From Mucisphaera calidilacus (GTDB lineage: Bacteria; Planctomycetota; Phycisphaerae; Phycisphaerales; Phycisphaeraceae): DNA of 32,000 nt. Position 1 is the stretch's first letter. Each line of letters starts with the position of its first letter. A program made the position numbers and the translations under genes. Location: assembly GCF_007748075.1 (NCBI RefSeq), contig NZ_CP036280.1, positions 1,740,001-1,772,000 on the forward strand, given 5' to 3'. Positions 11,963 through 31,233 of the stretch are shown here, in pieces. The notes under the pieces are model-generated. The model searched no databases and was not told the DNA's origin. It was given only the letters and a program-made list of their open reading frames with translations.

Positions 11963-12020
11963 GTGGAGGTCGTTGACCTCGAGCAGGGGCTGTTCTCGGG
12001 GTGGTGCGTTGTCGTCGATG

Positions 12021-13160: not shown

Positions 13161-16100
13161 GTGGTCACCTCGTCGTAGCGGACACGCGGATCAAGCCAGA
13201 GCAGGAGGAGGTCGCTGACGAGGGTTCCGAGCACGCCGAGCATGCTGAGGACCATGAGCATCGATCCGGCGAGGTACATATCCTCGCTGAAGAGGGCCGC
13301 GAGCAGGAGCGGGCCGACCGTGGGCAGTGACAGGACCATCGCCACGATGGCTCCACCCGAGACGAGTTGCGGGAAGACGTGCCCGATGCCGGAGATAAAC
13401 GGGTTGAGTGCGACACGCACCGGGTATTTGAGCAGGAGCTTGATGGGTCGGACGCCCTTGGCTCGCGCGGTGGTGACGTAGGGCTTGCTGAGTTCGTCGA
13501 GGAGGTTGGCGCGCATGACGCGGATCATGCCTGCCGTGCCCGCGACGCCCATCACCAGCACGGGGACCCAGATGTGGCGTAGCAGGTCGATCAATTTGCC
13601 CCATGTCCATTCTGGCTGTGCCGCGTACTCGGGCGAGAAGAGGCCTGAGACGTCGGCGAGGACCATGAGCACGAGTGCGAGCAGGAAGCCGGGGATGCTC
13701 ATGCCGATGAAGCCCACGAGCGTGAAGGCGTAGTCGGCGAGGGAGTATTGCCTGACCGCGGAGTAGATGCCGATGGGTATCGCGACCGCCCACGTGAAGA
13801 GGATCGTGCCGGCCGAGATACAGACGGTCAGGATGATGCGGTCGCCTACGATCTGGTTGACCGGCTGAGCGGTCTCCATGGAACGGCCCATGTAGCCCTG
13901 GAGCAGGCCGGCATCGGCCACATCAAGGCTCGTAAACCAGAAGAATCCCATCCATCGCGCGTACTGCTTCCACATGGGTTCGTCGAAATGGAAGAGTTGC
14001 CTGAGGTCCTCGATCTCCTGTTCGGCGTCGGCGTTGCCCGCCTCCTGGAGTTGGACGAGTCGCGCGGTGAGGTAGTCGCCTTCGGGGAGTTGGATGATGG
14101 TGAAGACGATGATCGAGATCACAAAGAGGGTGGGGATCATGATCAGCAGCCGCCGGCCGATGTAGGGGTGCTTGATCGCAATCAGGAGTAAGGCGAGTGC
14201 CACGATGCCGAGGATCACGGAGCGGATCAGGGAACCTAGGGGGATGGCCCGATCGATCGTGTCGGGCGAAGAACCGTCGAGGCGTGGTCGTGCGATCGGA
14301 TTGACGATGGCGTTGCGTACGTCGTCGATAGCCCCCTGCGACATCACGGGGTTCTCGAAAAAGAAGGTTTCGATGCCGGCGTTCCCCGGCGTCATGGCCA
14401 CGAAACCGAAGAGTGCGTTCTTCGGTACGTTGCGCATGTCCTCGTCCAGCACGACGAGTTGAGGCGGCGCATCGGCGATATTGATTGTCCAGATGTTCTC
14501 TGCACCGATCGCGAAGACCTTCTTCATCAGTGCGATCTGCTCTGATCGGCTGGGTGCCAGCAGTGCCTGCTCGTAGAGGTCGTAGGCGCGGTACATGGGG
14601 TGGTCACGGGGCGGTGGTCTCGCGTTGGCGACGCGTTTGGCCCTGGGATCGTCGTAGTATCCGCCCAGCGCGTACCACTGGGCCCATTGGGTGGCGTAGA
14701 ACGCTTCGATGGAGTGCGGGATGAAGTAGCGTGGTTCGATGACGGCGAAGAAATCACTCTCACCGCTCCAGATGTTGAAATCGAAGTCAGCCGCGTTCTT
14801 GTGGAGGTAGAAGAGTTGTCGTGCTCGCTCCTGCAGGATGGCCCGCACGCCGACCGCCGCCCAGTCATCGACGACGAAGTGCCCCGGGCCGATATCCGTG
14901 AACTGGCTGTACTCGATAAAGAAGGTCATCGTTGATCCGTCGGGGTAGGTGCGCATGCCGTCGGCGTCTCGTCCGGTCAGCCCGAGTTCGTCGAGTAAGG
15001 CGTTTGCTCCCTGGGTGTCGTGGTCGATGAAGGCCTGCCTGAGTTCCGGGCTTGAGAAGGGGGACTCGGGGCCGGGTTCGACCTGCGCCGGCTCGACCTG
15101 GTCGTTGTACAGGGCGCGGATGATCGCTTTTCGGTCGATCGCCAGCGAGAGCGCCTGGCGGAAGCGTTTGTCCGCCAGCAGCTGGGCCTTCCATCGGGTC
15201 GACGGGCGTTCGGGGTCGATGCGTCGATTCAGGTTTGGATTGATCACCCAGGGTGATCGTGTCGCGGAGTACCAGTGGAGCACGCGCATGCCGGTTGATT
15301 CTGCGCGGTCAAACAACTCGGTGTAGTTCTCGTAGCGCACGTGCCGGGTTTGCATGCTCACCTCGCCGTTGACAAAGCTCAGTGCCATCATCTGGCCGCT
15401 GCGCACGGCGAACTGCAGGCGGTCGATGTAGGGCAGCTGATTGCCCGATTCATCGACGGCGAAGTAGAACGGGTTGCGGACAAAGACCTGGGGCGGATTC
15501 GCTTTGTAACTGCGGTAGATCCACGGCCAGAGCCGTGGGCAGTCGGGGTTCATGAAATTCCGCATGTAGGCATACAGCGCCCTCGGGCTGGGGAGTTGGT
15601 AGGCCTGCATGCCCTCGGCGATGCGATCCTGGTCGCCGAGTGTCGGGTGATAGGGGCGCAGGTAGTGTTCGGGATCCTGCGTCATGTAGAAGCTGTAGGT
15701 TGCCATGATGCGTTTGAAGTGCGGGTACGGCTTCGTGAAGCGGAACAGGAGCGTGTAGTCATCGATCATGTCGATCGTGCCCGGGTCCGCACCGGTGTAC
15801 ATCCATCTTGGTGGGATTCCGTCGGTGAGGTCCTCGCTCAGTTCCTGGTCCCGCCACCAGTACATCACGTCGTTTGCGGTGAAGGGGTGGCCATCCGACC
15901 ATCGGACGCCACGCCGCAGACGCACCGTGAATGTTCTCATGTCCTCTGATGGCTCGAAGGACTTGGCAAGATGAGGGACGACCGGTTCGCCAAGCGGCGA
16001 CCAGCGGAAAAAGCCGGTGTACGACATCCTGTTCTGGATGACCCCGACGTCGTTTTCAGAACTTGCGACGCGTAGCCAGGTTCCGCCGTAGTTTCCGATT

Positions 16101-16453
16101 CCGTCCACGCCGCGCATGACGAGTGGTTCGGGTCCGGTGCGGTCGCGGACAGGAGGCAGATCGCCCGATTCAACGAGTTGGGCCAGGATCGGCGACTCGC
16201 CGCGTGGCCACCAGGAAGCGTCGCTACCCTCACTGCTGTCAACATCCACCTGCAGCCTCGGGAGGGTATCGATCCGTTGTGAGTCGAAGGAGACATCGCG
16301 GTCACGCTCGATGCTCGCGAGCAGATCGGGATCGACATCGATCGGGGCGTCTGATGCTTGTGGCTGCAATGACCAGCTCAGCAGCCAGAGGAGCAGCGCA
16401 AAGCAGAACCCTACACCCGTGACACCTGCGAAGAGATAGAACAGATACTTCAT
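13157..16453 (-). CDS. Fusion protein: N-terminal membrane anchor + family-5 (Opp/Dpp-type) substrate-binding domain + linker TM helix + DppB/OppB-like permease
   Basis: A single uninterrupted 1098-aa ORF. N-terminal anchor MKYLFYLFAGVTGVGFCFALLLWLLSW. Family-5 SBP pattern ...VFVRNPFYFAVDESGNQLPYIDRLQF... . Extra hydrophobic helix LIRSVILGIVALALLLIAI (about 14174-14240). Then a canonical DppB opening YIGRRLLIMIPTLFVISIIVFTIIQLPEGDY and EAA-loop region LDELSKPYVTTARAKGVRPIKLLLKYPVRVAL (permease part about 13160-14173). Confidence 0.9.
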   Translation of the reverse strand: MKYLFYLFAGVTGVGFCFALLLWLLSWSLQPQASDAPIDVDPDLLASIERDRDVSFDSQRIDTLPRLQVDVDSSEGSDASWWPRGESPILAQLVESGDLPPVRDRTGPEPLVMRGVDGIGNYGGTWLRVASSENDVGVIQNRMSYTGFFRWSPLGEPVVPHLAKSFEPSEDMRTFTVRLRRGVRWSDGHPFTANDVMYWWRDQELSEDLTDGIPPRWMYTGADPGTIDMIDDYTLLFRFTKPYPHFKRIMATYSFYMTQDPEHYLRPYHPTLGDQDRIAEGMQAYQLPSPRALYAYMRNFMNPDCPRLWPWIYRSYKANPPQVFVRNPFYFAVDESGNQLPYIDRLQFAVRSGQMMALSFVNGEVSMQTRHVRYENYTELFDRAESTGMRVLHWYSATRSPWVINPNLNRRIDPERPSTRWKAQLLADKRFRQALSLAIDRKAIIRALYNDQVEPAQVEPGPESPFSSPELRQAFIDHDTQGANALLDELGLTGRDADGMRTYPDGSTMTFFIEYSQFTDIGPGHFVVDDWAAVGVRAILQERARQLFYLHKNAADFDFNIWSGESDFFAVIEPRYFIPHSIEAFYATQWAQWYALGGYYDDPRAKRVANARPPPRDHPMYRAYDLYEQALLAPSRSEQIALMKKVFAIGAENIWTINIADAPPQLVVLDEDMRNVPKNALFGFVAMTPGNAGIETFFFENPVMSQGAIDDVRNAIVNPIARPRLDGSSPDTIDRAIPLGSLIRSVILGIVALALLLIAIKHPYIGRRLLIMIPTLFVISIIVFTIIQLPEGDYLTARLVQLQEAGNADAEQEIEDLRQLFHFDEPMWKQYARWMGFFWFTSLDVADAGLLQGYMGRSMETAQPVNQIVGDRIILTVCISAGTILFTWAVAIPIGIYSAVRQYSLADYAFTLVGFIGMSIPGFLLALVLMVLADVSGLFSPEYAAQPEWTWGKLIDLLRHIWVPVLVMGVAGTAGMIRVMRANLLDELSKPYVTTARAKGVRPIKLLLKYPVRVALNPFISGIGHVFPQLVSGGAIVAMVLSLPTVGPLLLAALFSEDMYLAGSMLMVLSMLGVLGTLVSDLLLLWLDPRVRYDEVTT

Positions 16454-18939: not shown

Positions 18940-20061
18940 GTGTCCAGAGTCGCCACCAAGCACCAACTCGTCTTCGAAGCCGTCCGCAAGGAGATCCGCG
19001 ACGGGCGGTTCAACCCCGGCGATCGCATCCCCTCCGACGTCGAACTCGTCGAGAAGTTCAAGGTCTCCCGGCCGACCGTGGCCAAAGCCCTGCAGGAACT
19101 CGAACGCAACGGCCTGGTCATCCGACGCCCGGGATCGGGCACGTACGTCAAGAAGACGGACAAGGATGGATACCTCTTCGGCCTGCTGATCCCCGGCCTC
19201 GGCGACACCGAGATCTTTGAACCAATCTGTGGCGAGATCGCTCGATCCGCGCAGCAGCTCAATCACTCCCTGCTCTGGGGTGGTGCGGGAACGCACACGC
19301 TCTTCGACAGCGACGAGGTCGGGTCGATCTCCCTTGATATCTGCCGTCAGTTCATCCAGAACAAGGTCTCGGGCATCTTCTTCGCGCCGCTCGTGGTGGC
19401 GGAGCACCACAACACCATCAATCAGCAGATCACACAAACGCTGACCGATGCGGGGATCCCGGTGGTCCTGCTGGACCGCGACATCGTGCCCTTCCCTAAT
19501 CGCAGCGGTTTTGACCTCGTCGGCATCAACAACCATCGGGCTGGCTTTCTCGTTACCCAGCACCTGATCGAGCAGGGATGCGACAGCATCCTCTTTGTCA
19601 CCGACCAGTACCGGGTTGGCACGGTCGAGGCGCGAATCGCCGGATTCAATCAGGCCCTCCTGCTGGCCGAGCGACCGGTCACACCGTCACTCATTCAGCG
19701 ATGCAACCCACGCGATGCAACCTTCGTCGCCAACATGATGGCGGCACACAAGCCGTGTGGCATTGTCTGTGGCAACGACGTTGTCGCTGCCAATCTCATC
19801 CACACGCTCGACAATCTCGACATCGAGGTCCCCAACCACGTGCTGGTCGCCGGTATTGACGACGTGAAGTATGCTGAACTGTTGCGTGTGCCGCTGACCA
19901 CGATCCATCAGCCCTGCGAGGCGATCGGACGCGCAGCGATTCGGGCGATGCTCGATCGACTCGAGATGCCGGACATGCCCGCGCGCGACGTTCTCGTTGC
20001 CTGCCACCTGGTCGAACGTGCCTCGACCGAGCGACTCGATCGGCTCAACGGCAAGGCCTGA
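18940..20061 (+). CDS. Chimeric regulator: GntR-type winged-HTH N-terminus + LacI/periplasmic-binding-protein-type sugar-binding C-terminus (AraR-like architecture)
   Basis: GTG start. The N-terminus KHQLVFEAVRKEIRDGRFNPGDRIPSDVELVEKFKVSRPTVAKALQELERNGLVIRRPGSGTYV is GntR-type. The remainder (GLLIPGLGDTEIFEPICGEIARSA...GIFFAP...VVLLDRD...DSILFV...GIVCGNDVVAANLIHTL...VAGIDDV) has the LacI/GalR ligand-domain pattern. Confidence 0.8.
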   Translation: MSRVATKHQLVFEAVRKEIRDGRFNPGDRIPSDVELVEKFKVSRPTVAKALQELERNGLVIRRPGSGTYVKKTDKDGYLFGLLIPGLGDTEIFEPICGEIARSAQQLNHSLLWGGAGTHTLFDSDEVGSISLDICRQFIQNKVSGIFFAPLVVAEHHNTINQQITQTLTDAGIPVVLLDRDIVPFPNRSGFDLVGINNHRAGFLVTQHLIEQGCDSILFVTDQYRVGTVEARIAGFNQALLLAERPVTPSLIQRCNPRDATFVANMMAAHKPCGIVCGNDVVAANLIHTLDNLDIEVPNHVLVAGIDDVKYAELLRVPLTTIHQPCEAIGRAAIRAMLDRLEMPDMPARDVLVACHLVERASTERLDRLNGKA

Positions 20062-20098
20062 CACCGCCATCATCACCCAGAGATGAAGAAGGACTCCC

Positions 20099-21016
20099 GT
20101 GGACCAGCCCCCCCGCGTCGTCGGACTTGGCGAAGCACTCTTCGACTGCTTCCCGGATCGTATTGTCCTTGGCGGCGCACCGGTTAATTTCGCCGTCCAC
20201 GCCGATCGACTCCTCAACCCGACTGGCGGTTCGGGCACCATACTCAGCCGTGTCGGATCCGATGCCCTCGGCCGCAAGCTCACGGATGAACTGGTTCAAC
20301 GAGGCATCGACACCGGTCATTTGCAGCACGATCCCAACTACCCGACCGGCACGGTCGATGTCAGGCTCACCGATGAAGGGCAGCCCGATTACACCATCAC
20401 GCCCGACGTGGCCTGGGATCACCTCGACTTCGATGAGCGTGCTCGAGGTCTTGCTGAATCGTGCCAGGCCGTCTGCTTCGGCACACTCGCTCAACGGTCC
20501 AAGCCGGCACGGTCGTCCATCCAGAGCTTTCTGGAATCCGCCGCCGACGCGATTCGCATGCTGGACATCAACATCCGCAGAGGCTATGACCTTGCCCCTC
20601 TGCTGCCGCGCAGCATCGAATTGGCAACCGTAGTCAAGCTCAACGAGCACGAATTGCCGCTTGCAGCAGAGATCCTCGGCCTGACAACCTCCGGCCAACC
20701 ACTGGCCCAGCTCGAAGCACTGCTGGATGAAGGCGGGCTCGACGCGGTAGCGCTGACACGGGGATCCGAGGGCACGCTGTTGATGACTAAGCAGGGAGGC
20801 TTCGAGGGCGAGCCGGGCAGCTTCAATCCGAATCCCGATGCGGACAGCGTGGGCGCGGGCGACGCGTGTGGCGCGGGGCTCGTCGCCGGAATGTTGCTGG
20901 GCCTTGATCCCCGAGACATCGTGACGCTTGCCAATGCGATGGGGGCTCACGTCGCTTCGTGTCCCGGCGCGACACCACCGCTACCCGACAGGATCCTGGA
21001 TCTCGTTCGCCGGTAA
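20099..21016 (+). CDS. PfkB-family carbohydrate kinase (fructokinase-like)
   Basis: VVGLGEALFDCF...LGGAPVNFAVHADRLL opening and the C-terminal DSVGAGDACGAGLVAGMLLG (PfkB GAGD motif). GAAGGA lies 7 nt upstream of the GTG start. Only 37 nt separate it from the regulator gene, so the two probably form an operon. Confidence 0.8.
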   Translation: MDQPPRVVGLGEALFDCFPDRIVLGGAPVNFAVHADRLLNPTGGSGTILSRVGSDALGRKLTDELVQRGIDTGHLQHDPNYPTGTVDVRLTDEGQPDYTITPDVAWDHLDFDERARGLAESCQAVCFGTLAQRSKPARSSIQSFLESAADAIRMLDINIRRGYDLAPLLPRSIELATVVKLNEHELPLAAEILGLTTSGQPLAQLEALLDEGGLDAVALTRGSEGTLLMTKQGGFEGEPGSFNPNPDADSVGAGDACGAGLVAGMLLGLDPRDIVTLANAMGAHVASCPGATPPLPDRILDLVRR

Positions 21017-21039
21017 GAACACCTATCTGGTCGGGGCAT

Positions 21040-21073
21040 AAAAAAACACCCCGCGAGCGCGAGGTGCTGTTTT
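21040..21073. terminator. Bidirectional intrinsic terminator between the kinase gene and the convergent pseudopilin-like pseudogene
   Basis: A7 run (21040-21046), a hairpin at 21047-21066 (outer stem cacc/ggtg and inner stem cgc/gcg separated by one c-a mismatch, loop gagc), then tgtttt (21068-21073). This gives a U-run on either strand. Confidence 0.55.
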
Positions 21074-21096
21074 GAGATGCGTTGAAAGCCCGTGGT

Positions 21097-22001
21097 TTAC
21101 TGCCACCAGACGTAGCCGGGAGCGAGATTGCCGTTCTCGTCCGTGTCGTTCTCGAGGAAGATGTCATCCTCCGCGGCCGTCGGCAGTTCACCGTACTGGA
21201 GGTTCTCCATGATGTGGCTGCTCTCAAAAGTCGTGCTGCCATCATTCCGGACCACCGTGCCCTGCCAGGCGGGCGAATCGCCAGAAGAGGTCGGGTCGGT
21301 CCATATGCTGTACTCGGAGCCCGAATCACCAAAGCTGCGGTCGGTCAGCAGGACCGCCGAGGTATTCAGCTCATCACGTCACTCCAGCCACCGATTCATC
21401 TTGCTCGCGTCCGTAAAACCTCGGTACTGAGCAAATACGGCGATATTCGGGTCGTTGTGCCTGAAGAGCAGAGCAAGGCAGGCGTAGGAGAACTTGGGGT
21501 TGTGCTCGCTGCCGTACTTCGAGTCATAGGACGTGATCGTGCCTTCGGGGGCGCCGTCGCCGTCGAGGTCCTGGGTCTCGCCCGGAACCGCGGCACGGCC
21601 TCATCATCCCCCGGGCTGATGAGATAATCAGCCGAGAACATGCCGCTGTTGAGGAGGATGGCCAGCCGTGTCGAGGGGAGACTTCCGAGCGAGCCACGCG
21701 ACACCGCGTGCTCAGCACCACCCTCGTAATCATCACCATCAGTGAGCAGCGGGCCCCGCGTGTTGGAGAAGCCTTAGCCGACGGTGTCGCCTTGGTTATC
21801 GATTCCCGCGTACCAGCCGCCGTTGCTCTGGGCATGGATCACAAGCCCCTGATGAATGCCGCGGAGTTGGGTTGAGTTCTGCAACTGACGGGCCGTTCGT
21901 CGGGCTGCACCCAACGCCGGCAGCAGAATGCCGATAAGCAGCGCGATGATGGAAATGACTACCAGCAGTTCGATGAGCGTAAAGCCTTCAGATCGCCGCA
22001 T
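21097..22001 (-). pseudogene. Disrupted pseudopilin-like (prepilin N-terminal motif, DGS-type C-terminus) gene with two in-frame stops and one frameshift
   Basis: ATG at complement 21999-22001 gives [39 protein letters not shown]...[10 protein letters not shown]. Then TAA (21774-21776) interrupts, and the same frame continues GFSNTRGPLLTDGDDYEGGAEHAVSRGSLGSLPSTRLAILLNSGMFSADYLISPGDDEAV. Sense moves to another frame around 21578-21603 (PGETQDLDGDGAPEGTITSYDSKYGSEHNPKFSYACLALLFRHNDPNIAVFAQYRGFTDASKMNRWLE). TGA (21379-21381) follows, then RDELNTSAVLL...AWQGTVVRNDGSTTFESS...GYVWWQ and TAA at 21097-21099. The length of 905 nt is not a multiple of 3. Confidence 0.6.
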
Positions 22002-22101
22002 GTTGAACCTCGTCTGTTGTTGCCAGCTTGGGTTGAAACGCTCAGGCAGTGATTTGATTCCGAGAGCCACGCAAAGAATACGAGTGACGAACTCTGATTT
22101 A

Positions 22102-22129
22102 ACTTTACTTTTAGCATCGCATATGTCAA
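22102..22129 (-). promoter_or_regulatory. Sigma70-like promoter candidate upstream of the pseudopilin-like pseudogene
   Basis: On the minus strand: TTGACA (complement 22124-22129), a 16-nt spacer, then TAAAGT (complement 22102-22107). It lies in an AT-rich island about 100 nt upstream of the ATG. Confidence 0.35.
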
Positions 22130-22364
22130 CTTTTTCTCACTATTAATATTACATATTTAACTCCTTGTCCTTGTCTTAATTTTACATTTGCAATCGCATT
22201 GACAACGGATGTCTGAGTCCATACTGCTATAAATCCCGTAAGACACTCCCCTGAAATCACTTGCAGAGAGTCTCGCGCGGGCTCGATCCCCAGATTCATG
22301 TTTTACAGTTTCAGGTGCTTCCGGCTACCTCTCGGCAGTCAGATCACCTCGCGTACCCGCGCTC

Positions 22365-25300
22365 TTACCTGGCAGGATCGACCAGATAAACCTTCGCGGC
22401 CATACTCTTCATAAATACAGGCACCTCGATGACCACGCCCCGGTCATCACCCCGCGCATCCGTGGTCGCTATGACCCGACCCTCGAACGTGTCCCACCAC
22501 TCAACGCGATACCTGCCTGCGGGGAGGTCGCCAAGACGCACGACACAGGGCTGAATCGGCCCGAGTTCCTCTTCCGCCTGCTGGCGACTGGCCCAGGAAT
22601 AGCCCTCGTCACGCAGCCACAGGCAGGCCAGCAGGCCATCATCCACCACGCGCTCGAATCGTGACGCCCACACATCCACGCCGGGATCATCGCGGGCGAT
22701 GAAGTTGGTGACCTCGTAAGAAGCCCCCAGCCAGTCCTTACCCGTGTTGCGGACGATCACCTCGTGCTCGCCGGCGAGAAGGTCAACCCCGTACGCACCG
22801 TTGTAGGTTGAGATCGCCTGTCTGGACGCGCCATTGTTGTCCTCGAACACCTCGGACAGCAGGACCTCGCCGTTGACCTCGATCTCGAGTCCCGCTCCGG
22901 CCCAACCCGAGACTGTCTCGACGTGCACAATGAACCGACCCTCCTCGGGCATGTTCAGGCGCAGCGTCGATGGGTTATGCAGGTGTCGATTGTCACCCGA
23001 GTTGCCGTGGAGTACCGCGGGGAAAAGATCGAAGTCCGTAACCGCTCCGTCCGCACGGACCTCGAACGAATTCGGCTGATTGACGATGCCGCGATCCCAG
23101 CTCTTAGCGGCAGCCTGAATCACCAGCGGTCGTCGCGCACCATCTCGATCGGGCGTATCTCGCAGACGTATCTCAATGTCATCGATCGGACGGAAACCGA
23201 CACGGTTCAGCGGCATGCCGGAAACAAAGCGTGCCAACGGCGTCATCCGGTGATAAAGGTCATTCGGCTGCACGTAGCTGTCCCACCACCAGACCATGGG
23301 ACCACCCGCGGAACCCGAGAACAGTGCGGCCCAGTGCCCGTTGTGCAGATGAACACCCTCGAGATCGACGCCCGTCGAACCGGATGCAGAGACGTTGACG
23401 CCGTACTCACCGAACAGGTGCGGCCGGCCATACTCCCGGATCTTCCGCTGTGCGATCGGTACGAAATAGGGCGGAAAATCTTTTGCCCCGTAGATGTGCG
23501 TCTGTACGAAATCAAGCACTTCCAAGCGATCCACCTCGGGGTCACCATGGTTGATCCAGAAACTCGTCGCCACCGGATGGTCGTACACATCAAGGTCTTT
23601 GATCACACGCGCCATCTCTTGATGCCAGTCGGCGGACGGACCCTTGAAGTAGCCGTCGATGCCGTTCGCCTCGTTCCACAACTCCCAATTCATCAGCGAT
23701 ACGTGGTGCCCGTAGCGTGCAACGATGTAACGCAGCCGCTGACGGAAGTAGGCGCGAGCTGAGGGATCAGACAACACCTCGTGTGTCCTGCGCAGCGGCC
23801 CGCCCTGCGCCGCGTTGTAAGGCGACTCGTGCCAGTGACGCGGCTCACCCGAAGCACGCATCGCGCTGAAAGACTCGATCGCGGCCATCACCTTCATATC
23901 GAGCCGCTCGGCGAGATCGAGCACCGCGTCGACACGTGCCGCCGCTTTCAGATCGATCCAGCCCAGTCCGTTCGCGCCGGGAACCGCGTCCTCGTGGCGT
24001 TCGTGCCGCTCAAGCCCCATCCTGTTGAAGGTCGGGCTGATCCAGATGCGCGCAAAGTTGCCCTCGGCCTCAGCGATGCCGCCGAAGTACATCTCGAAAT
24101 CACGCTGTCCCCGGGGACCGGACCACCCGACATTCATGCCGATCGGGAAGTAGAGCGAACCGTCGTCATGCTCGAAGTAAAGTGGGTTGTCTCGGGCCAC
24201 ACGCACAAAGCCCGACGCTTCACTCGCCGTGACTTCAAAACCATAGGGATCACTGGCCACCCTTCCGCTGCCATCGTCCAGTACCAGTTGCAACCGATAA
24301 GCACCCGGCTCGGTGGGTGTAAAGCGAACCTCCCAGACAGGGTCGCCCGTTGCCTCGAGAACCTCGTGACCCTCGACCTCATCGAACCGGTAATCACGAT
24401 TCATGAATCCCGGCACCGTCAGTCGTTTCCCGCTCGGCGTCGTGATGATCGCATCCAGCCGGACGTCCTCAGGATCGAACGGGTTCACCCATGTGCCGCC
24501 ACACGACGCCCGAACCGTCAGCCGTTCATAGGCCGCCAGCCGATCCGCTGAGAGGGTGACCGCATCGATCGAAGCGATGCCACGCGAGGCGTAGAGGCGA
24601 CGCTCCGGGTACATCGACGCGTAGGCAGCATCCTTCGCACGCAGCCCCTCGCGGTGTTCAATGTGCCGCAGACGGAATCCCACCTCGATGCCATCCATCG
24701 CCAGCGGATCCTCGCGCACAGCAAGACGGGCGGTGAACGCGGGCCGATCACGACGCTCGTCACGCAGATGCCAGACACCCGTGATCCCCGAGAACCGATC
24801 GGCCACCAGGTAGCCGTCGGTGTTTGTGCGCACCATGACACGTTCTGCCGGTTCGATCGTCAGCGCATCACGTTCGCCGTCGCCATCCGAATCCTCACGA
24901 CGCAACACCCCCCCGCCGCTGAACACGCCGGTGCGAACCCGGTCGCCGCGAAACAGCAGCCAGTCGTGCTCAACGCCATCCAACTCGGGCACCGCCAATT
25001 CGATCGCCATCGCGGGCAACGCCGCATCATCGATCGACTCGACACGCAAGGCGCAGGCCAGGCCTTCTTCCTCGGGGACCTGCCTCCAGAAGAGCACGCC
25101 TACTGCACGCCCGTCCAGGACCACGTCCGCCGTCCGTGTGGACAATCCCCACCGTGTCTCTGAGGGCCGGTGGCCCATGTCGACGACCGTCAACGACTGC
25201 GACGCCTCTGCGTCCAGCAGGCGCAGACCGATCACCATCGGCAGGGGATGAGCAGGCCCCTCACCCGTCGCGTTCCTAACCTCCGCTGCCAGCAGTCGGG

Positions 25301-25424
25301 TCTCGGGCATCACGTGCACCGTACATAGGAGAAACACGGACAACAGGATCCGAAAAAACCGCCCACGTCCGTAAACGTGAGCGGTTCGGGAGGATCGTCG
25401 CGATTCATGCATCTTGATGATCAC
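22365..25424 (-). CDS. Large secreted clan GH-A glycoside hydrolase: GH5-like TIM barrel preceded by a DUF5060-like Ig domain, with uncharacterised N- and C-terminal regions
   Basis: Hydrophobic signal-like segment FFRILLSVFLLCTVHV. ERLTVRASCGGTWVNPFDPEDVRLDAIITTPSGKRLTVPGFMNRDY...WEVRFTPTEPGAYRLQL resembles the DUF5060 domain found N-terminal to GH5-like enzymes. GNFARIWISP, NWELWNEANG (acid/base NE) and PHLFGEYGVN (nucleophile E) fit GH5 and mannanase-like clan A enzymes. The start (GTG 25424 vs ATG 25412) is uncertain. Confidence 0.75.
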   Translation of the reverse strand: MIIKMHESRRSSRTAHVYGRGRFFRILLSVFLLCTVHVMPETRLLAAEVRNATGEGPAHPLPMVIGLRLLDAEASQSLTVVDMGHRPSETRWGLSTRTADVVLDGRAVGVLFWRQVPEEEGLACALRVESIDDAALPAMAIELAVPELDGVEHDWLLFRGDRVRTGVFSGGGVLRREDSDGDGERDALTIEPAERVMVRTNTDGYLVADRFSGITGVWHLRDERRDRPAFTARLAVREDPLAMDGIEVGFRLRHIEHREGLRAKDAAYASMYPERRLYASRGIASIDAVTLSADRLAAYERLTVRASCGGTWVNPFDPEDVRLDAIITTPSGKRLTVPGFMNRDYRFDEVEGHEVLEATGDPVWEVRFTPTEPGAYRLQLVLDDGSGRVASDPYGFEVTASEASGFVRVARDNPLYFEHDDGSLYFPIGMNVGWSGPRGQRDFEMYFGGIAEAEGNFARIWISPTFNRMGLERHERHEDAVPGANGLGWIDLKAAARVDAVLDLAERLDMKVMAAIESFSAMRASGEPRHWHESPYNAAQGGPLRRTHEVLSDPSARAYFRQRLRYIVARYGHHVSLMNWELWNEANGIDGYFKGPSADWHQEMARVIKDLDVYDHPVATSFWINHGDPEVDRLEVLDFVQTHIYGAKDFPPYFVPIAQRKIREYGRPHLFGEYGVNVSASGSTGVDLEGVHLHNGHWAALFSGSAGGPMVWWWDSYVQPNDLYHRMTPLARFVSGMPLNRVGFRPIDDIEIRLRDTPDRDGARRPLVIQAAAKSWDRGIVNQPNSFEVRADGAVTDFDLFPAVLHGNSGDNRHLHNPSTLRLNMPEEGRFIVHVETVSGWAGAGLEIEVNGEVLLSEVFEDNNGASRQAISTYNGAYGVDLLAGEHEVIVRNTGKDWLGASYEVTNFIARDDPGVDVWASRFERVVDDGLLACLWLRDEGYSWASRQQAEEELGPIQPCVVRLGDLPAGRYRVEWWDTFEGRVIATTDARGDDRGVVIEVPVFMKSMAAKVYLVDPAR

Positions 25425-25444
25425 TCAGGCTGAAGGAAACCACT

Positions 25445-26803
25445 TCACGCAACACGACGACGCATCAGGCCCGCCGAGCCCAGCAGGATCAGGCTCGCCA
25501 CCGCCGGCTCCGGAACTCCCGGTGCCGACGTGTCGAAGTTACCGGCGAGGATCGAGAGGTCAAGCAGATCGACCGTCCCGTCGTCGTTGAAATCACCGTC
25601 TTCCCACCCGAACGAGCCGGGCTTGTCGAAGTTGGAAGCCAAGATCGATAGGTCCAGCAGATCGACCATGCCGTCACGGTTCGCGTCGCCCGGGTAGTCG
25701 ATCTGATCCACCTCACGGATCAGCCGGAAGTTGTCGACGTAGAACGAGCCGGGCGCGTCCGTGTTCGTCGCCAGCAGCAGAACGATCGCTTCGCTGTCCT
25801 CAACGATCGACTCAAAGGGCAGACTGGTGTTCGCGCCGATGAGACTCGACATCGAGATCTCGTAGGTATAAGTGCCCGGTTCGGAGGTATCGAAGAACTG
25901 CGTGGGAGATGAATAGAAGGCCTCACTGTCGTCATTCAGCGAGATGCGGAAGCCCGCGAAGCTCGTGGCCGGGTCGAGGTCCGCGGGATCGATGGTGATA
26001 TCAAACGCGAGGAAGTCGGCCTGATTGAACCGGTCGGCGATCGCGTTGATCTCTTCCTGTGTGTCGCCGTTATCGATGTCCCAGCGAACCTCGCTGCCCC
26101 AGCGGAAGTTCGGGACGCCCGAGGTGCGTGTCACCTTCAGGGCGTTATTCCCCTCGGTCGCGTTAGCGGAGACCACCTCCCGGGTCGTTTCGGGATTCGG
26201 GTAGTAGGTGGGATCGGGATCCATCCAGCCCTCGAGACCGGTCTCGAAAGAGAAGAGTGTGTCCGTCACGCGCGGCTTCGGCTCTTCCGCGGTCTCAACA
26301 TTTGCCAGCACTGCGAACGACGTGCCGTTGTCCGGGTCGAACATCTGGATGCCGAAACTCGTCACGTCATCGAGGTCGGCGATGCCGTCGAGGGGGAGGC
26401 TCAATCGATTGGCCGAGCCCACCTGAATCTGCGTCTGGGGCGATTCGAAGAAGCCCTCCTCGCCCGTTGTGATGAAGAGCTTGGCCCCCAGCGCGAAAGT
26501 CTGAGGTGTAAACATCAGGTCGAAGCTGTCAAAGCCCGTGAGATCGGCGTTGAAAGCCTGATTCTGCATGACCACACGGGAGATCCCTTCCGCGGGAGGA
26601 CCAAAGTCCATATCCAGCAGGATTCCGTCGCCGTCGAGGGTGAGTTCCCAGAGACCTCCGCCTCCTCCGAAAGCGGTGGTGACGTCTTGCATGGCTTCCA
26701 GCTCGGCCTGAGTTGGCGAGAAGATCACGGCCTGGGCAGGCCCCGCGAGGAGCAGACCGGCCGTTACGGCCATCCATGTACGTGTGTTCGTGCAAGCAGG
26801 CAT
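25445..26803 (-). CDS. Secreted non-catalytic protein: two CBM-like modules + two dockerin-like repeats + PEP-CTERM anchor
   Basis: Signal peptide ...WMAVTAGLLLAGPAQA. The second module opens LFSFETGLEGW...ATEGNNALKV and ends FYVDNFRLI, making it a paralog of 29425..30099. Dockerin-like GDANRDGMVDLLDLSILASNFD and GDFNDDGTVDLLDLSILAGNFD (25532-25690). PEP-CTERM VPEPAVASLILLGSAGLMRRRVA (25448-25516). Confidence 0.85.
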   Translation of the reverse strand: MPACTNTRTWMAVTAGLLLAGPAQAVIFSPTQAELEAMQDVTTAFGGGGGLWELTLDGDGILLDMDFGPPAEGISRVVMQNQAFNADLTGFDSFDLMFTPQTFALGAKLFITTGEEGFFESPQTQIQVGSANRLSLPLDGIADLDDVTSFGIQMFDPDNGTSFAVLANVETAEEPKPRVTDTLFSFETGLEGWMDPDPTYYPNPETTREVVSANATEGNNALKVTRTSGVPNFRWGSEVRWDIDNGDTQEEINAIADRFNQADFLAFDITIDPADLDPATSFAGFRISLNDDSEAFYSSPTQFFDTSEPGTYTYEISMSSLIGANTSLPFESIVEDSEAIVLLLATNTDAPGSFYVDNFRLIREVDQIDYPGDANRDGMVDLLDLSILASNFDKPGSFGWEDGDFNDDGTVDLLDLSILAGNFDTSAPGVPEPAVASLILLGSAGLMRRRVA

Positions 26804-26848
26804 CTCGATAACCTCCGTAGTTGCGTTCCTGTTCAGAAACAGTACGAG

Positions 26849-28384
26849 TCAGCAGTGCGATAAACCACGACGACCGGTCAACACGACCAGCATCGACACA
26901 ACCGAGGCCGCAGCCGGCTCCGGTACCAAAGATTCAAACCCGAATGATGAGGCGAGCGTGCTGAGGTCCAGCAGGTCCGCGACGCCATCACCATTGAAAT
27001 CACCACTCGACCATCCCGCAGCATCCTCGAACGATGCCGCGAGGGCCGAAAGATCAAGCAGATCGACGCGACGGTCGAGGTTCGCGTCACCGAAGGCCGT
27101 GTTCAGCACTTCCTCGACCAGCATGGTCAGGTCAGCCGCATCGGCTTGCCCGTCGCCGTCCAGGTCGAACGAATCGTCGCCCAGATTGGACATCAGCAGA
27201 TCGATATCGGATGCGTCGACAACCCCGTCGCCGTTGTAATCACCCGGGATGAAGGGATTGGCGGCGTAATCCACGAGCATCTGGCCCAGCCGGCGGTTAA
27301 GACTCTCATCGAAACCCCCGCTGATGTTCGAAGTCCGGGCGGGGTCGATATGGAACTCGCTGTTGTAAGACCCGGGCATACCCCACTGCCAGACGTGGAG
27401 GCTCTCGATCACGTCGCCATAGCCGTCCAGCGCCCTGAGCAGGCCGCGGAAGCCTTTGAGTTGCTCGTCGAGGTCAACGGTGTGCCCCTCCGAAGCGATG
27501 GCGATCCCACGATTAAAGGGTGTGGCACCGTACTCCGTGAACTTCACGGGCAACCCATCACCCCCCTGCCGGGCCTGTGCAAACGGCAGGATGATCGTGT
27601 CGATCAACTCGGTCCAGCGCGAAACAACCAGGCCCTCGAAGTCGCCCGAGTCCGAGTTGTCTGCCTCTTCGGGCGTGACCACGCGGAAGTAAGCATCGAT
27701 GCCTACGAAATCTACCGCCGGATGATCCCAAACGGTCGCGGTCAGGTTGCTGTTCGTGAAGTTGTCCCAGTTCGCGGCGTAGCCGATCTGGCCGCTGAAG
27801 ACCGCATCGACCTGATCAATCAGGCTCGTGAGATCGGTGTTGTGGCCGGAGTCCTGAACCAGCGTTTTCAGCTCGGTCCCGATTGTCATCGCGTCGACGC
27901 CGTAGGTCTCGGCCATCTCCGCAACATCGACGACATAGGTGGTGTAATCATCCCAGAATGTTTCGGCCTCGTTCGACCCCGGCGTCGGGTTGTAAAACCC
28001 GCGCCAGGTGGAGAAGTTCTCCAGCTCGACGAAGGGGTTGACCGTCACGGTCATGCCGAGGCTGGTTGCCCTGGCAACCGCCGCCTCGACGTGTTCAAGA
28101 TCAGGCGCTCGCTGTGAACTCGACGCGATCTGCCCCGTGCCCGGCGTGACGAACCGGAGCGGGCTGAGCGACACCTCGCGAAGCCCGTAGTCGTACATGC
28201 GCTGGACCTCATTGGCCCAGACCGTGGGCCCGTCCCAGCCGTAGTTCCACCAGGAGACCGTGTTGAACCCCAGTCCCGGGTCGTGACCCGGTTCGTAGGT
28301 GAGGTTCGCCCACCCGTCGGCGCTCAGCCCAAGGCTGAGCACCGACATGAGGATCAGGCGGGTTGGTAGGTGTGTGGCGGACAC
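26849..28384 (-). CDS. Secreted clan GH-A glycoside hydrolase (GH113-like, beta-mannanase family candidate) + four dockerin-like repeats + PEP-CTERM anchor
   Basis: Catalytic-domain pattern MTVTVNPFVEL...WRG...FWDDYTTYVVDVAEMAETYGVDAMTIGTELK...GQIGYAANWDNF...VWDHPAVDFVGIDAYF...VKFTEYGATP matches my recollection of GH113-like enzymes (IGTEL acid/base, TE-x-G nucleophile). Dockerin-like GDYNGDGVVDASDIDLLMSNLG, DLDGDGQADAADLTMLV, GDANLDRRVDLLDLSALAASFE and GDFNGDGVADLLDLSTLASSFG (26939-27244). PEP-CTERM VPEPAAASVVSMLVVLTGRRG. Confidence 0.75.
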   Translation of the reverse strand: MSATHLPTRLILMSVLSLGLSADGWANLTYEPGHDPGLGFNTVSWWNYGWDGPTVWANEVQRMYDYGLREVSLSPLRFVTPGTGQIASSSQRAPDLEHVEAAVARATSLGMTVTVNPFVELENFSTWRGFYNPTPGSNEAETFWDDYTTYVVDVAEMAETYGVDAMTIGTELKTLVQDSGHNTDLTSLIDQVDAVFSGQIGYAANWDNFTNSNLTATVWDHPAVDFVGIDAYFRVVTPEEADNSDSGDFEGLVVSRWTELIDTIILPFAQARQGGDGLPVKFTEYGATPFNRGIAIASEGHTVDLDEQLKGFRGLLRALDGYGDVIESLHVWQWGMPGSYNSEFHIDPARTSNISGGFDESLNRRLGQMLVDYAANPFIPGDYNGDGVVDASDIDLLMSNLGDDSFDLDGDGQADAADLTMLVEEVLNTAFGDANLDRRVDLLDLSALAASFEDAAGWSSGDFNGDGVADLLDLSTLASSFGFESLVPEPAAASVVSMLVVLTGRRGLSHC

Positions 28385-28438
28385 TTGCGTTTCCTGGTTA
28401 CAGAGTCTGCGAGATACACGTCTGGAGAACTCGGAGCC

Positions 28439-29329
28439 TTAGCGATCTTTGTCGTAGAAGTATGCGTTCGTGTTGTTGGTGGCGGAAGTAAATTGGCCCC
28501 ATGAATCCCGGTTCTGCCAGCTGACCGAACCATCGCGGTAGCCCATGTAGATGCCGTCAGGCGTGTAGGTATCCTGAACTCGGCCCCAGTCGATCTTACG
28601 CGTGACACCTACCTTAAATGGCGAATCCTCACCATCGGCACCTCGGTAAACAGCCTCATTCGAGCCGTTGAGGTGAGGCAGATCGCTGCCCCAACTCGCC
28701 CCGGTAATGTGGTGGTAGCAGGTGGCGACGACTTCACTGTCGGCGTAATCATCAAGCGTGCTGGGGAAGTAGAAGTACTTGTCGGTCTCCTCAACATCAA
28801 CCATTGCACCGCCGCCGGGCGTGGTTCCGTCAACGAGCGTGCGATAGAGACCGCCGTAGACTGCCCAGCGAATCCACTGAAGATTCCGCGTCGAGTCGGC
28901 AGTCAGGTTGGTTCGCCCCTCGTCAATCTGGGCCTGCTCATCAAAATCGACATCCTCGAGTTCCCCATAGCTGTTACAGCCAAACGAGGAAGGAGTGAGG
29001 CCGTAACTGTTCAGCAATTCCTGGGCGAGGTCGTAGCGGTACCAGCCGGTCATCCCGGCACGACGTTCGATATTCGGATCCGCATCAATATCACCGAACG
29101 TCCCCGCCGGGTGAGGCAGGCGACCTTTATTGTCCACCGCCCAAGCCGTGTTGGCGATAACGAACTGCCTCAGACCGCTTGAGTCCGCCATCCGCCTGGC
29201 TGTCAGCCGCGCTGCACCCAGAGCGGGCAGCAGGATGCCGATGAGCAGGGCGATGATCGAGATCACCACCAACAGTTCGATGAGGGTAAAACCGATGCGT
29301 CGTGTCGTGCGTGCCATAGTCGTATCCAA
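28439..29329 (-). CDS. Pseudopilin-like protein with a prepilin-type N-terminal cleavage/methylation motif and a DGS-type C-terminal motif
   Basis: [38 protein letters not shown]-terminal PDGIYMGYRDGSVSWQN corresponds to the ...DGS segment of H-X9-DG proteins. AAGGA lies upstream of the ATG. Confidence 0.85.
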   Translation of the reverse strand: MDTTMARTTRRIGFTLIELLVVISIIALLIGILLPALGAARLTARRMADSSGLRQFVIANTAWAVDNKGRLPHPAGTFGDIDADPNIERRAGMTGWYRYDLAQELLNSYGLTPSSFGCNSYGELEDVDFDEQAQIDEGRTNLTADSTRNLQWIRWAVYGGLYRTLVDGTTPGGGAMVDVEETDKYFYFPSTLDDYADSEVVATCYHHITGASWGSDLPHLNGSNEAVYRGADGEDSPFKVGVTRKIDWGRVQDTYTPDGIYMGYRDGSVSWQNRDSWGQFTSATNNTNAYFYDKDR

Positions 29330-29424
29330 TCCTTATTCAGGGAGAGGCGTGCAGGGGATATCCAAGGGCCCGGGCCGGCGCTAACCGGCCGGGGCAAAAC
29401 GTGTCGTTAGGATGTCAGCCGGTA

Positions 29425-30099
29425 TCAACGGCGGCGAAGCAGAGCCAGACCACCCAGGCCCAGGAGGCCGAGGCTGGCAGGCTCCGGAACGATACGGACG
29501 TTGTCGAGATACATCGTCATCGGGGCGCGGCCCCAGTCACCATTCACGCCGAGCGTCAGGCGATAAAAACCGCTGGCCGGGTCAGCCACAAACGTGCTGA
29601 GCGGCTCCTGTACGGTGATCGTCACCGGACCACCTGCCAGATCATCCGGGAGACCGACGACGGCCACGCCATCGATCTGACGGAAGTCCGGGCCCTGAAG
29701 CGAGAACGAATTATTCAGGAACGTGCCGCCCGGGATCGTCGCGGGGTCGTAGGTGATGTCGTAAGCGATCGCGAGGCTGCCGGGACGGGCCGCCTCCTGC
29801 GCCAGAACCGCCGCCATCGCGTCAAAGAACTCGGGGTTCTTGGGGGTATCGCCACGGAAACCCTCGATGGTCGCGGTCCAGCTGAATCCGCTGATATCAA
29901 CCGTCACGGCCAGGCTCTGAGCACCTTCGGTCGCGTTCAGCGGTGAGACCGCGATCGAGCCGGGGGCGTTCCAGCCGGTGTATTCCCAGCCCTCGACGCC
30001 GTCCTCAAACGAGAACAGCAGCATGTCCGCCGACGCCGAGACCGTCAGTCCCGCGACCGCGATTGCGGCCAGTGCCATTACGTTTCTTTCTCCAAACAT
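29425..30099 (-). CDS. Secreted PEP-CTERM-anchored CBM-like protein
   Basis: I place the start at ATG complement 30097-30099, preceded by the strong Shine-Dalgarno GAAGGAGGA, not at track start 30180. Signal peptide MFGERNVMALAAIAVAGLTVSASA. LLFSFEDGVEGWEYTGW...ATEGAQSLAV...MYLDNVRI is a CBM-like jelly-roll pattern. PEP-CTERM VPEPASLGLLGLGGLALLRRR. Confidence 0.85.
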   Translation of the reverse strand: MFGERNVMALAAIAVAGLTVSASADMLLFSFEDGVEGWEYTGWNAPGSIAVSPLNATEGAQSLAVTVDISGFSWTATIEGFRGDTPKNPEFFDAMAAVLAQEAARPGSLAIAYDITYDPATIPGGTFLNNSFSLQGPDFRQIDGVAVVGLPDDLAGGPVTITVQEPLSTFVADPASGFYRLTLGVNGDWGRAPMTMYLDNVRIVPEPASLGLLGLGGLALLRRR

Positions 30100-30195
30100 G
30101 TGATCCTCCTTCATGGATTGGTGGCCCAAGACAGGCCTGTGACTCTGTGAAACGTGCATGAATCTATCCGAGAGCAACACGCTCCCGGCTCCTTG

Positions 30196-31233
30196 TCATG
30201 GTTGGACGGGGGGCGGCCCGACGCTGAGCGAAGGCTCGATCGCGTAGGCGACCGCGCGCGGCGAACGTGTCGCCATCCCCTGGGTAATCTCGGCGTGGAG
30301 TACCTCCACCGCCGCCTGCCCCACCTGTGCAAAGGGCGTGATCAACGTCGTCACGGGAAGCCCCGTGTGGTTGCGCATCATGTCCGACCCGAAACAGATC
30401 AGCGACAGGTCCTCCGGAATCCGCAGCCCCAGGCTCGTCGCTGCATTCCAGATCGCGATCGTCTCGTGGCGCTCGTAGCAGATGATCGCCGTGGGCCGAT
30501 CCGGCCCCTCCAGCAGAGCGCGGGCCTTGGCCGGAGCCTCACCGGTCACGAAGCCGTCCGAGATCTCGGTCTCGAAGGGATCGAACCCGGCCTCCTGAAC
30601 CGCTGAGATAAAGCCGTCGCAGCGATCATGAACCGAGTAGTGGATATAGCCGTCCGCCGCGTGATAGCTAACGTAGGCGATCTTCTGATGCCCTTGCTCC
30701 AGCAGGTGCTGGGCAGCTAGACGGCCGCCCGCGAAGTCGTTCGGATAGACACAGTTATGTGCTTTTTTGGCATTGAGCCAGACATACGGGATGCTCAGGT
30801 CACGGATGCGCTGGAGCGTCGTGTCGGGCATCTCGTAGAGGTACTCGATCAGCAGGCCATCCACGGTGTACTCGTTAAGGACCTGCGGGATCGATTCCGC
30901 GTCCTCGAACCCCTGCATCGGCAGCTCGCACATCAGCAGCCGATCGCCGGTCTCAGCCAGGCCGCGCTGGATGCCGTGCAGCAAGGAGACCTCGAAGATG
31001 TCGGCACCCGGCTCCGAGCAGCTCAGGAAGCCGATGCAGCCGAAACGCCCGGTCCGCACTGTTCGTGCCGCCTGATTGGGCCTGTAGCCATGATCGATGG
31101 CGATCTGGCGGATCAACTGACTCCGCTTCACGGCAGACGGGCGATTTTCCTTGTTCTTCCCGTTGAGCACACGCGAGACCGTCCCCGCGGAAACACCGGC
31201 CTTTTCTGCGATCTGTGCAATCGTGATGCTCAT
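30196..31233 (-). CDS. LacI-family transcriptional regulator
   Basis: N-terminal HTH MSITIAQIAEKAGVSAGTVSRVLNG...IRQIAIDHGYRPNQAAR, followed by a periplasmic-binding-protein-type sugar-binding domain (IGFLS...). Confidence 0.9.
   Translation of the reverse strand: MSITIAQIAEKAGVSAGTVSRVLNGKNKENRPSAVKRSQLIRQIAIDHGYRPNQAARTVRTGRFGCIGFLSCSEPGADIFEVSLLHGIQRGLAETGDRLLMCELPMQGFEDAESIPQVLNEYTVDGLLIEYLYEMPDTTLQRIRDLSIPYVWLNAKKAHNCVYPNDFAGGRLAAQHLLEQGHQKIAYVSYHAADGYIHYSVHDRCDGFISAVQEAGFDPFETEISDGFVTGEAPAKARALLEGPDRPTAIICYERHETIAIWNAATSLGLRIPEDLSLICFGSDMMRNHTGLPVTTLITPFAQVGQAAVEVLHAEITQGMATRSPRAVAYAIEPSLSVGPPPVQP

Follow-up and report, generated by a model that had tools for sequence, protein, structure and literature searches.

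What is the role of a pilin-like gene that sits inside a locus for glycan degradation? The question is raised by a stretch of 32,000 nt from Mucisphaera calidilacus (class Phycisphaerae, Planctomycetota; this whole stretch is hereafter called the window), in which two gene clusters, locus A (GH2/GH43) and locus B (mannan-type), hold the same core order: a regulator, a PEP-CTERM protein, a pilin-like protein and glycoside hydrolases (GHs). The PEP-CTERM tail is a signal for exosortase-dependent anchoring. An earlier note on this DNA took all its pilin-like genes for members of the DUF1559/H-X9-DG family and proposed that each locus encodes its own surface unit for glycan capture. This family is among the largest paralogue families in Planctomycetes, and part of it would here gain a testable role; Planctopirus limnophila has 68 DUF1559 copies, whose function is unknown (PMC10632474). 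Planctomycete clusters of carbohydrate-active enzymes (CAZymes) are functionally uncharacterised as well, with 30-34% of their genes unassigned (PMC11131199). Here, we show that the gene order is conserved in other Phycisphaerae, and we tentatively propose that the pilin-like proteins act as locus-specific subunits of a shared filament.

Gene order around the pilin-like genes is conserved in other Phycisphaerae

We compared locus B with the surroundings of five full-length relatives of its pilin-like protein (pilin B), which share 42-62% identity with it and lie on contigs of different organisms. In all five B-type contigs, a LacI gene is followed by a gene for a PEP-CTERM protein of ~215-226 residues, the pilin-like gene and then mannan genes, and the small proteins encoded between LacI and the pilin-like gene are homologous PEP-CTERM proteins throughout. 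GH113 lies directly downstream of the pilin-like gene in four of the five loci, and the mannan gene sets of the B-type loci include GH5, GH26, GH130, a mannobiose-type 2-epimerase and an ABC importer. In one B-type locus (L003), the gene for a PEP-CTERM protein with a carbohydrate-binding-module (CBM) fold is followed by two pilin-like genes in tandem, both of one subfamily (8907-9758 and 10001-10873, encoding P0016 and P0014).

For locus A, four contigs were compared, with relatives of its pilin-like protein (pilin A) at 79, 72, 51 and 40% identity; the contig scan with protein A gave two close relatives and one uninformative Opitutales contig (L009). A PEP-CTERM gene directly adjoins the pilin-like gene in all four A-type contigs, and GH2 plus a gene at the GH43 position follow it in three (L008, L010 and L011; Pfam confirms both enzymes in L010 and L011), the fourth contig (L007) ending past the PEP-CTERM gene downstream of its pilin-like gene. 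A divergent AraC-type gene stands upstream in each of the three contigs that reach far enough (recognised by Pfam in L011, and in L007 and L008 only from where it lies and how large it is); L010 starts inside the upstream PEP-CTERM gene. The A-type relatives also hold a short PEP-CTERM paralogue (280-301 residues) between the pilin-like gene and GH2.

Two further pilin-like genes of a Mucisphaera sp., chosen regardless of context, showed the same plan with other enzymes. The first lies in a locus (L092) where a divergent AraC gene, recognised by Pfam, is followed by PEP-CTERM, pilin-like, PEP-CTERM and GH78 genes; in the second, a GH31 gene borders a LacI gene that is followed by pilin-like, PEP-CTERM and, further on, GH66 genes. 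The four pilin-like subfamilies of the B, A, GH78 and GH31/GH66 loci thus each track one enzyme set. Across the 11 Phycisphaerae loci, a same-strand PEP-CTERM gene is the direct neighbour of 10 of 12 pilin-like genes, as opposed to 3 PEP-CTERM genes among the 81 genes that lie at least three positions away. Pairing within the window alone does not exceed chance, since about 5 of its 22 genes are PEP-CTERM genes and the identity of the pilin-like N-termini is family-wide; conservation of the gene order in other genomes does. The link between pilin-like, PEP-CTERM and GH genes that the earlier note had proposed thus holds at 40-62% identity in other Phycisphaerae and extends to two more locus types.

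The arrangement is lineage-restricted

We then considered 80 metagenome contigs sampled by the pilin N-terminus only. On these lie 81 pilin-like genes, most of which have an N-terminus of the Verrucomicrobia or Planctomycetia type; H-X9-DG is present in 33 of the 73 complete genes. In this sample, 57 direct neighbours could be scored on the upstream side and 57 on the downstream side, and not one of them was a same-strand PEP-CTERM gene; GH, LacI and AraC families were not in the lists of commonest Pfam families among 248 neighbours within three genes. The commonest families were GFO/IDH/MocA oxidoreductases, PEP-CTERM and sulfatase, with 3-4 downstream neighbours each. As the sample shows neither adjacent PEP-CTERM genes nor a recurring GH family, the arrangement is a trait of Phycisphaerae, or at least lineage-restricted, and not a property of the DUF1559 superfamily; a rule of adjacency for the whole H-X9-DG/DUF1559 family, or for the Planctomycetes-Verrucomicrobia-Chlamydiae (PVC) group, does not hold.

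On Planctomycetia-type contigs of the sample, the DUF1559 gene is often followed by a small lipoprotein-like open reading frame (ORF) of ~140-170 residues on the same strand. These ORFs are alike by BLASTP in three cases (L020:11818-12309, L070:10995-11510 and L076:1585-2001) and by eye in two more (L028:9454-9873 and L083:10026-10472), and 2 of 129 downstream neighbours match CarboxypepD_reg. The DUF1559 gene and this small ORF may form a second pair of a pilin-like protein with a small beta-sandwich partner.

The pilin-like N-terminus is constrained and the heads diverge

The window holds three pilin-like genes, A, B and a decayed third copy. Their 29 N-terminal residues are identical, as had been reported, and 14-16 of the 29 codons differ between any two genes, always synonymously. 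All three begin with a class III signal peptide (R(G/I)G↓FTLIELLVV, the arrow marking the cleavage site), scoring 26.5-34 bits with PF07963 (N_methyl, cut-off 21.2) and 21-28 bits with TIGR02532 (cut-off 16.3), and in family alignments the N-terminal residues are invariant across families and genera. N-termini that remain identical while about half of the codons have changed synonymously point to constraint by a common assembly machine, and recent gene conversion is rejected as their source on account of the same codon changes and of the invariance of these residues across genera. The N-terminal helix is under purifying selection.

Beyond the N-terminal ~64 residues, A and B have no detectable relation by BLASTP or profile-profile comparison, in agreement with the earlier note. 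The assignment of all the pilin-like genes to the H-X9-DG type stood for gene A only. Here the motif is literal and part of an R-H-x9-D-G-S signature that is invariant in 25 family members, including the His, D254 and G255. In B, an invariant H215 (PHLNGSN) and an invariant D262-G263 (RDGS) are 46 residues apart, and ten positions ahead of DG, B has Thr and the pseudogene has Pro in place of His. At E<=0.01, both intact genes lack a match to PF07596 and to the H-X9-DG models. The profile of the A family, however, can be aligned from end to end with 30 canonical DUF1559 proteins that are annotated with PF07596 (E 1e-52). For the B family, alignment with DUF1559 is confined to the first ~119 residues, and 2 of 23 members match PF07596 weakly. 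On this profile evidence, pilin A is probably a true DUF1559/H-X9-DG protein.

The AlphaFold2 model of pilin B (pLDDT 86) has a helix at residues 12-62, a mixed segment and then 12 strands that make up a beta-rich head. Foldseek found no similar solved structure for it in the PDB (best E 0.8); no solved pilin was retrieved, so the assignment of a pilin architecture to B follows from its overall build (helix plus beta head) only.

The locus B partner has a predicted CBM fold

Five proteins of the window carry PEP-CTERM-type tails: the two that adjoin the pilin-like genes, a short paralogue downstream of AraC, the GH113 enzyme (C-terminus VPEPAAASVVSMLVVLTGRRGLSHC) and the Mann_GBD_bact protein (C-terminus VPEPAVASLILLGSAGLMRRRVA) of locus B (Table 1). 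TIGR02595 is above cut-off for both pilin-adjacent proteins, whose tails read VPEPTALVMLTIGAATIARRR for locus A and VPEPASLGLLGLGGLALLRRR for locus B. The locus B tail also reaches 23.3 bits with the Pfam PEP-CTERM model (cut-off 20.7); the locus A tail remains below cut-off in Pfam (17.5 bits) and scores 17.8 with TIGR02595 (cut-off 16).

The small PEP-CTERM protein of locus B is predicted to have a CBM-type beta-jelly-roll fold. Its AlphaFold2 model (pLDDT 72.8) is a beta-sandwich with 85 PDB matches at E<1e-3 in Foldseek, headed by CBM4, CBM22, CBM16, CBM27 and CBM11 modules, and several of the matched CBM modules are mannan binders. A 60-member profile of the family matched, by sequence, CBM28 (3acf, 1.2e-7) and the CBMs of mannanases (1wky and 1pmh, ~5e-5), and some members match CBM_17_28, CBM_4_9 or SGBP_B_XBD in Pfam; the globular domain of most members is covered by no Pfam model. 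The family counts 654 representative clusters at E<=1e-10. At E<=1e-3 the ~210-residue, single-domain family grows to 13,156 representative clusters, partly due to the shared sorting tail, and it also occurs in proteins of ~430-1300 residues (a few are larger) with 2-4 separate profile-matching stretches.

The locus A PEP-CTERM protein and its paralogues are a separate family, with the last strand and the sorting tail as the only parts in common with the B family; neither Pfam nor PDB sequence matches revealed a lectin or ConA-like domain in the locus A protein, even with E relaxed to 5 or when the family profile was used. The idea of CBM- or lectin-like partners is thus borne out for locus B, by model and profile, and the fold of the locus A protein was not assigned by profile searches. 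Adjacency of PEP-CTERM and pilin-like genes is kept in Phycisphaerae, but the pilin-adjacent proteins are less special than the earlier note had it, tails being five in the window, not two, and present on enzymes.

Dockerin type I repeats stand directly before the PEP-CTERM tails of one enzyme (GH113) and of two non-catalytic proteins (Mann_GBD_bact and the locus A PEP-CTERM protein). None of the window's proteins looked like a cohesin. We considered a dockerin-cohesin scaffold built on the pilin and found it unsupported: a dockerin match is missing in three of four GH113 orthologues of B-type loci and faint in the fourth, and neither structure model (pilin B and the locus B PEP-CTERM protein) retrieved cohesins.

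Gene content of the two loci and their surroundings

All ORFs named by the earlier note are present in the described order, and Pfam bears out their domains (Table 1). Judged from its gene content, locus B is best explained as a regulator-controlled operon for mannan utilisation (GH113, mannanase-type binding domain and GH5-like protein), and locus A as a regulator-controlled GH2/GH43 operon for glycan utilisation.

Table 1. Coordinates of the features of loci A and B, with the short PEP-CTERM paralogues of A-type relatives.
Feature	Position	Strand	Support
LacI-family regulator, first gene of locus B	30196-31233	-	Pfam LacI, Peripla_BP_1, Peripla_BP_3
Small PEP-CTERM protein of locus B, 224 residues, predicted CBM-type beta-jelly-roll fold	29425-30099	-	Pfam, TIGR02595, AlphaFold2 model
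Pilin-like protein B, class III signal peptide, divergent head	28439-29317	-	N_methyl, TIGR02532
GH113 beta-mannanase-type enzyme, dockerin, PEP-CTERM-like tail	26849-28384	-	Pfam GH113 1.4e-16, Dockerin_1
Non-catalytic Mann_GBD_bact protein, dockerin, PEP-CTERM	25445-26803	-	Pfam
DUF5060 + GH5-like TIM-barrel protein, last intact gene of locus B	22365-25424	-	Pfam
Decayed pilin-like gene	21097-22070 (ATG at 22001)	-	N_methyl 1.9e-8
AraC-family regulator, divergent from locus A	1563-2462	-	HTH_18, HTH_AraC
PEP-CTERM protein of locus A, N-terminal domain + dockerin repeats	2659-3894	+	Dockerin_1 1.9e-5, TIGR02595
Pilin-like protein A, DUF1559/H-X9-DG-type	3996-4856	+	N_methyl 3.4e-7
GH2 glycosidase with signal peptide	5094-8246	+	Five GH2 Pfam domains
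GH43 enzyme	8243-9250	+	Glyco_hydro_43 5e-21; 4-base overlap with end of GH2 gene
Short PEP-CTERM paralogue of the locus A protein, downstream of AraC	431-1252	-	47% identity to 2659-3894
Short PEP-CTERM paralogues in A-type relatives	L007:10906-11748, L008:10913-11755, L010:1335-2192, L011:8944-9849

The GH5-like protein matches DUF5060 at 31.8 bits (cut-off 27.2) and, weakly, Cellulase (GH5) at 19.6 bits (cut-off 23.5, E 7e-4), and its N-terminus resembles a signal peptide. Same-strand intergenic gaps are 20-107 bp. A promoter-like site lies at 31339-31311, by the LacI gene, and a hairpin scan found no above-chance terminators within locus B; as neither the promoter nor the terminator scan gave scores that exceed shuffled expectation, the operon structure follows from spacing only. 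In locus A, the 237 bp between pilin A and GH2 (4857-5093) are an empty gap, at the place where the relatives hold their short PEP-CTERM paralogue.

The third pilin-like copy is decayed, as the earlier note had seen: an in-frame TAA at 21774-21776 follows codon 75, homology to a DUF1559-annotated protein (P0064) runs in-frame through this first stop, and the C-terminal 'NDGS' part is in another frame, behind a second stop. It is preceded by an AT-rich spacer (22071-22364) with a promoter-like site, TTGACA-16-TAAAGT, at 22129-22102, and past it, at 21068-21045, lies the hairpin that is most like a terminator in this region; from these signals it appears to be a transcription unit of its own. 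In Mucisphaera sp., an rve-family transposase gene stands directly downstream of the GH5-like gene, at the place that the pseudogene takes in the window. The GC fraction dips at 21000-24000 (~0.58 vs ~0.62 elsewhere).

Between the two loci, an ABC system of the Opp/Dpp type (9833-16453, minus strand) shows unusual fusions: in a 1098-residue ORF an SBP_bac_5 solute-binding domain is fused with a permease, and a 709-residue ORF consists of two ABC_tran + oligo_HPY ATPase units. It may serve as an oligosaccharide importer for the flanking loci. A regulator with a GntR-type helix-turn-helix and a periplasmic-binding domain and a PfkB sugar kinase (18940-21016, plus strand) lie between this system and locus B, and may be part of downstream sugar catabolism. 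No exosortase (EpsH/XrtA family) was found within the window.

Discussion

We tentatively favour the reading that locus-specific pilin-like subunits give a shared type IV filament a substrate-specific role, most likely the capture and retrieval of glycans at the cell surface. The case for filament subunits, and against proteins that are merely tethered to the membrane, is made by the G↓F motif, Glu +5 and a helix that has stayed invariant despite saturated synonymous change. The head is specific to the enzyme set and is encoded next to a CBM-fold protein at the start of the operon, in keeping with an accessory role that depends on the substrate. Among such roles we favour capture, which agrees with the dextran-binding fibres and the 'fishing rod' hypothesis of planctomycetes, the pilus system of Akkermansiaceae and lectin-bearing minor pilins (see below).

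Under this proposal, the LacI or AraC regulator would turn the operon on when the cognate oligosaccharide is present. Non-catalytic genes (PEP-CTERM protein and pilin-like protein) come first in the operon plan, followed by secreted enzymes, most of them PEP-CTERM-tagged. After cleavage at G↓F by a prepilin peptidase, the pilin-like protein would be fitted by its invariant N-terminal helix into a common type IV filament, either a pilus or a pseudopilus like that of type II secretion systems (T2SS), which would be encoded elsewhere in the genome. The fast-evolving head would lend this common fibre a substrate-specific function, most likely polymer capture and retrieval at the cell surface together with the anchored CBM-fold protein, a capture unit comparable to the surface glycan-binding proteins (SGBPs) of the polysaccharide utilisation loci (PULs) of Bacteroidota.

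Several observations weigh against this proposal. Neither a binding site nor a lectin or CBM fold was detectable in the pilin B head by Foldseek against the PDB, and Pfam found no filament assembly genes among the ORFs of the 32-kb window, whether PilB/PilC- or GspE/GspF-type genes or a prepilin peptidase. Most secreted proteins of these loci, enzymes included, bear PEP-CTERM; the tail is generic, and therefore adjacency alone is no proof of a physical pair. The short PEP-CTERM paralogue at 431-1252 has no pilin-like partner, and 1-430 lacks a pilin motif. Nor is the gene order fixed, as the PEP-CTERM gene of P. mikurensis comes after the pilin-like gene and not before. All the conserved loci belong to a single class, orthologues among them do not count as independent observations, and the pairing is missing from the broad sample of pilin-like genes. 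Co-transcription, finally, is deduced from gene spacing only.

A cargo-specific pseudopilin of the T2SS type is the strongest competitor, although we regard it as unlikely: a substrate-induced subunit would help the export of the PEP-CTERM and dockerin proteins of its operon across the outer membrane, and would not capture glycans. Nearly all pilin-adjacent genes do encode exported PEP-CTERM proteins that need to pass the outer membrane. In Klebsiella, the maltose regulon controls the pul T2SS genes together with pullulanase. Proteins A and B are 100% identical to M. calidilacus entries that NCBI labels 'type II secretion system protein', and the best NCBIfam matches of the pilin-like proteins are GspG and GspH. 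Moreover, type II secretion proteins are up-regulated on fucoidan in a marine planctomycete (PMC11685898). However, these GspG and GspH matches are far under the equivalog cut-offs (24.6-34 bits vs 80-88.85) and cover the N-terminal ~50 residues only, each locus holds a single pilin-like gene and no other T2SS component, and the head is much larger than that of GspG (292 residues vs ~134 model positions). We know of no T2SS with a separate pseudopilin for each cargo set.

It is more improbable that the pilin-like proteins are periplasmic binding or sensing proteins, whose helix would tether a head that binds released oligosaccharides and passes them to a transporter or regulator. Family names hint at such a role (SBP_bac_10 in Pfam, 'PulG-like putative transporter' at NCBI), an ABC importer is present in B-type loci of other genomes, and the Opp-type ABC system lies between the two loci of the window. 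Yet the G↓F motif, Glu +5 and invariance of the whole helix are expected of filament subunits and not of a simple anchor, the head resembles no solved solute-binding protein in Foldseek, and no transporter adjoins locus B in the window. Coincidence, by which repeated adjacency would be meaningless given the abundance of DUF1559-type and PEP-CTERM genes, could claim the five PEP-CTERM genes among the ~22 of the window, the family-wide N-terminus and the lack of association in the metagenome sample, but is very improbable and largely refuted by the same neighbours being kept in all nine contigs (as far as these extend, at 40-62% identity and across genera), by two further independent locus types with the same plan and by the local enrichment.

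The capture reading can be carried further, to a plug-in system, which we regard as doubtful at present: one filament machine would accept interchangeable, operon-encoded pilin subunits, whose heads would act as substrate-specific retractable harpoons together with exosortase-anchored CBM proteins. If true, this would be a functional counterpart of SusC/D, and the hundreds of DUF1559 paralogues of other Planctomycetes could follow the same principle with other partners, the small beta-sandwich lipoprotein downstream of several Planctomycetia-type copies being a candidate.

As to novelty, the role suggested by the earlier note is less new than stated there: the general idea of pilus-mediated glycan capture exists for the PVC group, and for Planctomycetes it had already been proposed (PMC12078418, PMC5394234, PMC13174399). 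Our literature search found DUF1559 described only as a large family of unknown function, and found no paper that unites Phycisphaerae, prepilin and glycoside hydrolase. What is new is that regulated CAZyme operons contain pilin-like subfamilies, each specific to its locus and paired with CBM-fold proteins that carry PEP-CTERM. This ties defined subfamilies to defined substrates (mannan, the GH2/GH43 substrate, rhamnoside and alpha-glucan) and, with strain Pan265 in culture, makes the 'fishing rods' idea testable gene by gene.

Comparison with known systems

With GspG and GspH, the pilin-like proteins share the class III signal peptide and the N-terminal helix, but no T2SS genes are nearby and scores remain at 25-34 bits against cut-offs of 80-89. 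With DUF1559 (PF07596), protein A matches canonical members over its full length, R-H-x9-DGS included, whereas protein B matches over ~119 residues and has a His-to-DG spacing of 46; in addition, neighbours in the broad sample include no recurring CAZyme family and no adjacent PEP-CTERM gene.

Closer in function are pilins and fibres that bind glycans. The minor pilin PilC of Streptococcus sanguinis is a modular, lectin-bearing subunit of type IV pili (PMC9934059), and as in our proposal a standard N-terminal pilin helix carries a grafted head that gives the filament its glycan binding; PilC differs in being from a Gram-positive bacterium, encoded in a pil locus and endowed with a recognisable lectin module, where the pilin B head matches no lectin or CBM. 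In planctomycetes, dextran binds to pili-like fibres of Planctopirus and Gemmata (PMC5394234), and the 'fishing rod' hypothesis holds that pili of dedicated pilin-like proteins capture polysaccharide in this phylum (PMC12078418). The phylum is the same here, and so are the proposed polysaccharide binding and pilin-like subunits. The fibres were, however, observed in the class Planctomycetia, not in Phycisphaerae, and had no genes assigned to them, whereas we describe candidate genes in substrate-specific operons, among them a GH66/GH31 alpha-glucan locus. Akkermansiaceae, also of the PVC superphylum, have a locus, MUL2, whose type IV-like pilus serves to attach to fucose-rich glycans; its gene order is kept from genome to genome (PMC13174399), and there too a pilin-like component is tied to glycan acquisition. 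By its description, MUL2 differs in being one locus dedicated to this task, with PilM and a pilin of the archaeal type; it is not placed within each CAZyme operon and has no PEP-CTERM partner.

The comparison with the PULs of Bacteroidota, with their SusD and SGBP proteins, concerns the whole operon. In both, non-catalytic glycan-binding proteins (here putative, with a predicted CBM fold) head a substrate-specific, regulator-controlled CAZyme locus. The likeness to SGBPs extends to the fold of the locus B partner, which is shared with SGBP-B (PDB 7k44 is among its Foldseek matches), and 4 of 60 members of its family match PF18329 (SGBP_B_XBD). In contrast to PULs, the window has no ORF in which Pfam recognised a SusC-type TonB-dependent transporter or SusD. 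The anchor here is a PEP-CTERM tail and not a lipid, and a pilin-like protein that is missing in PULs has joined the locus; enzymes and binding proteins displayed through PEP-CTERM tails would thus amount to a surface architecture unlike that of Bacteroidota.

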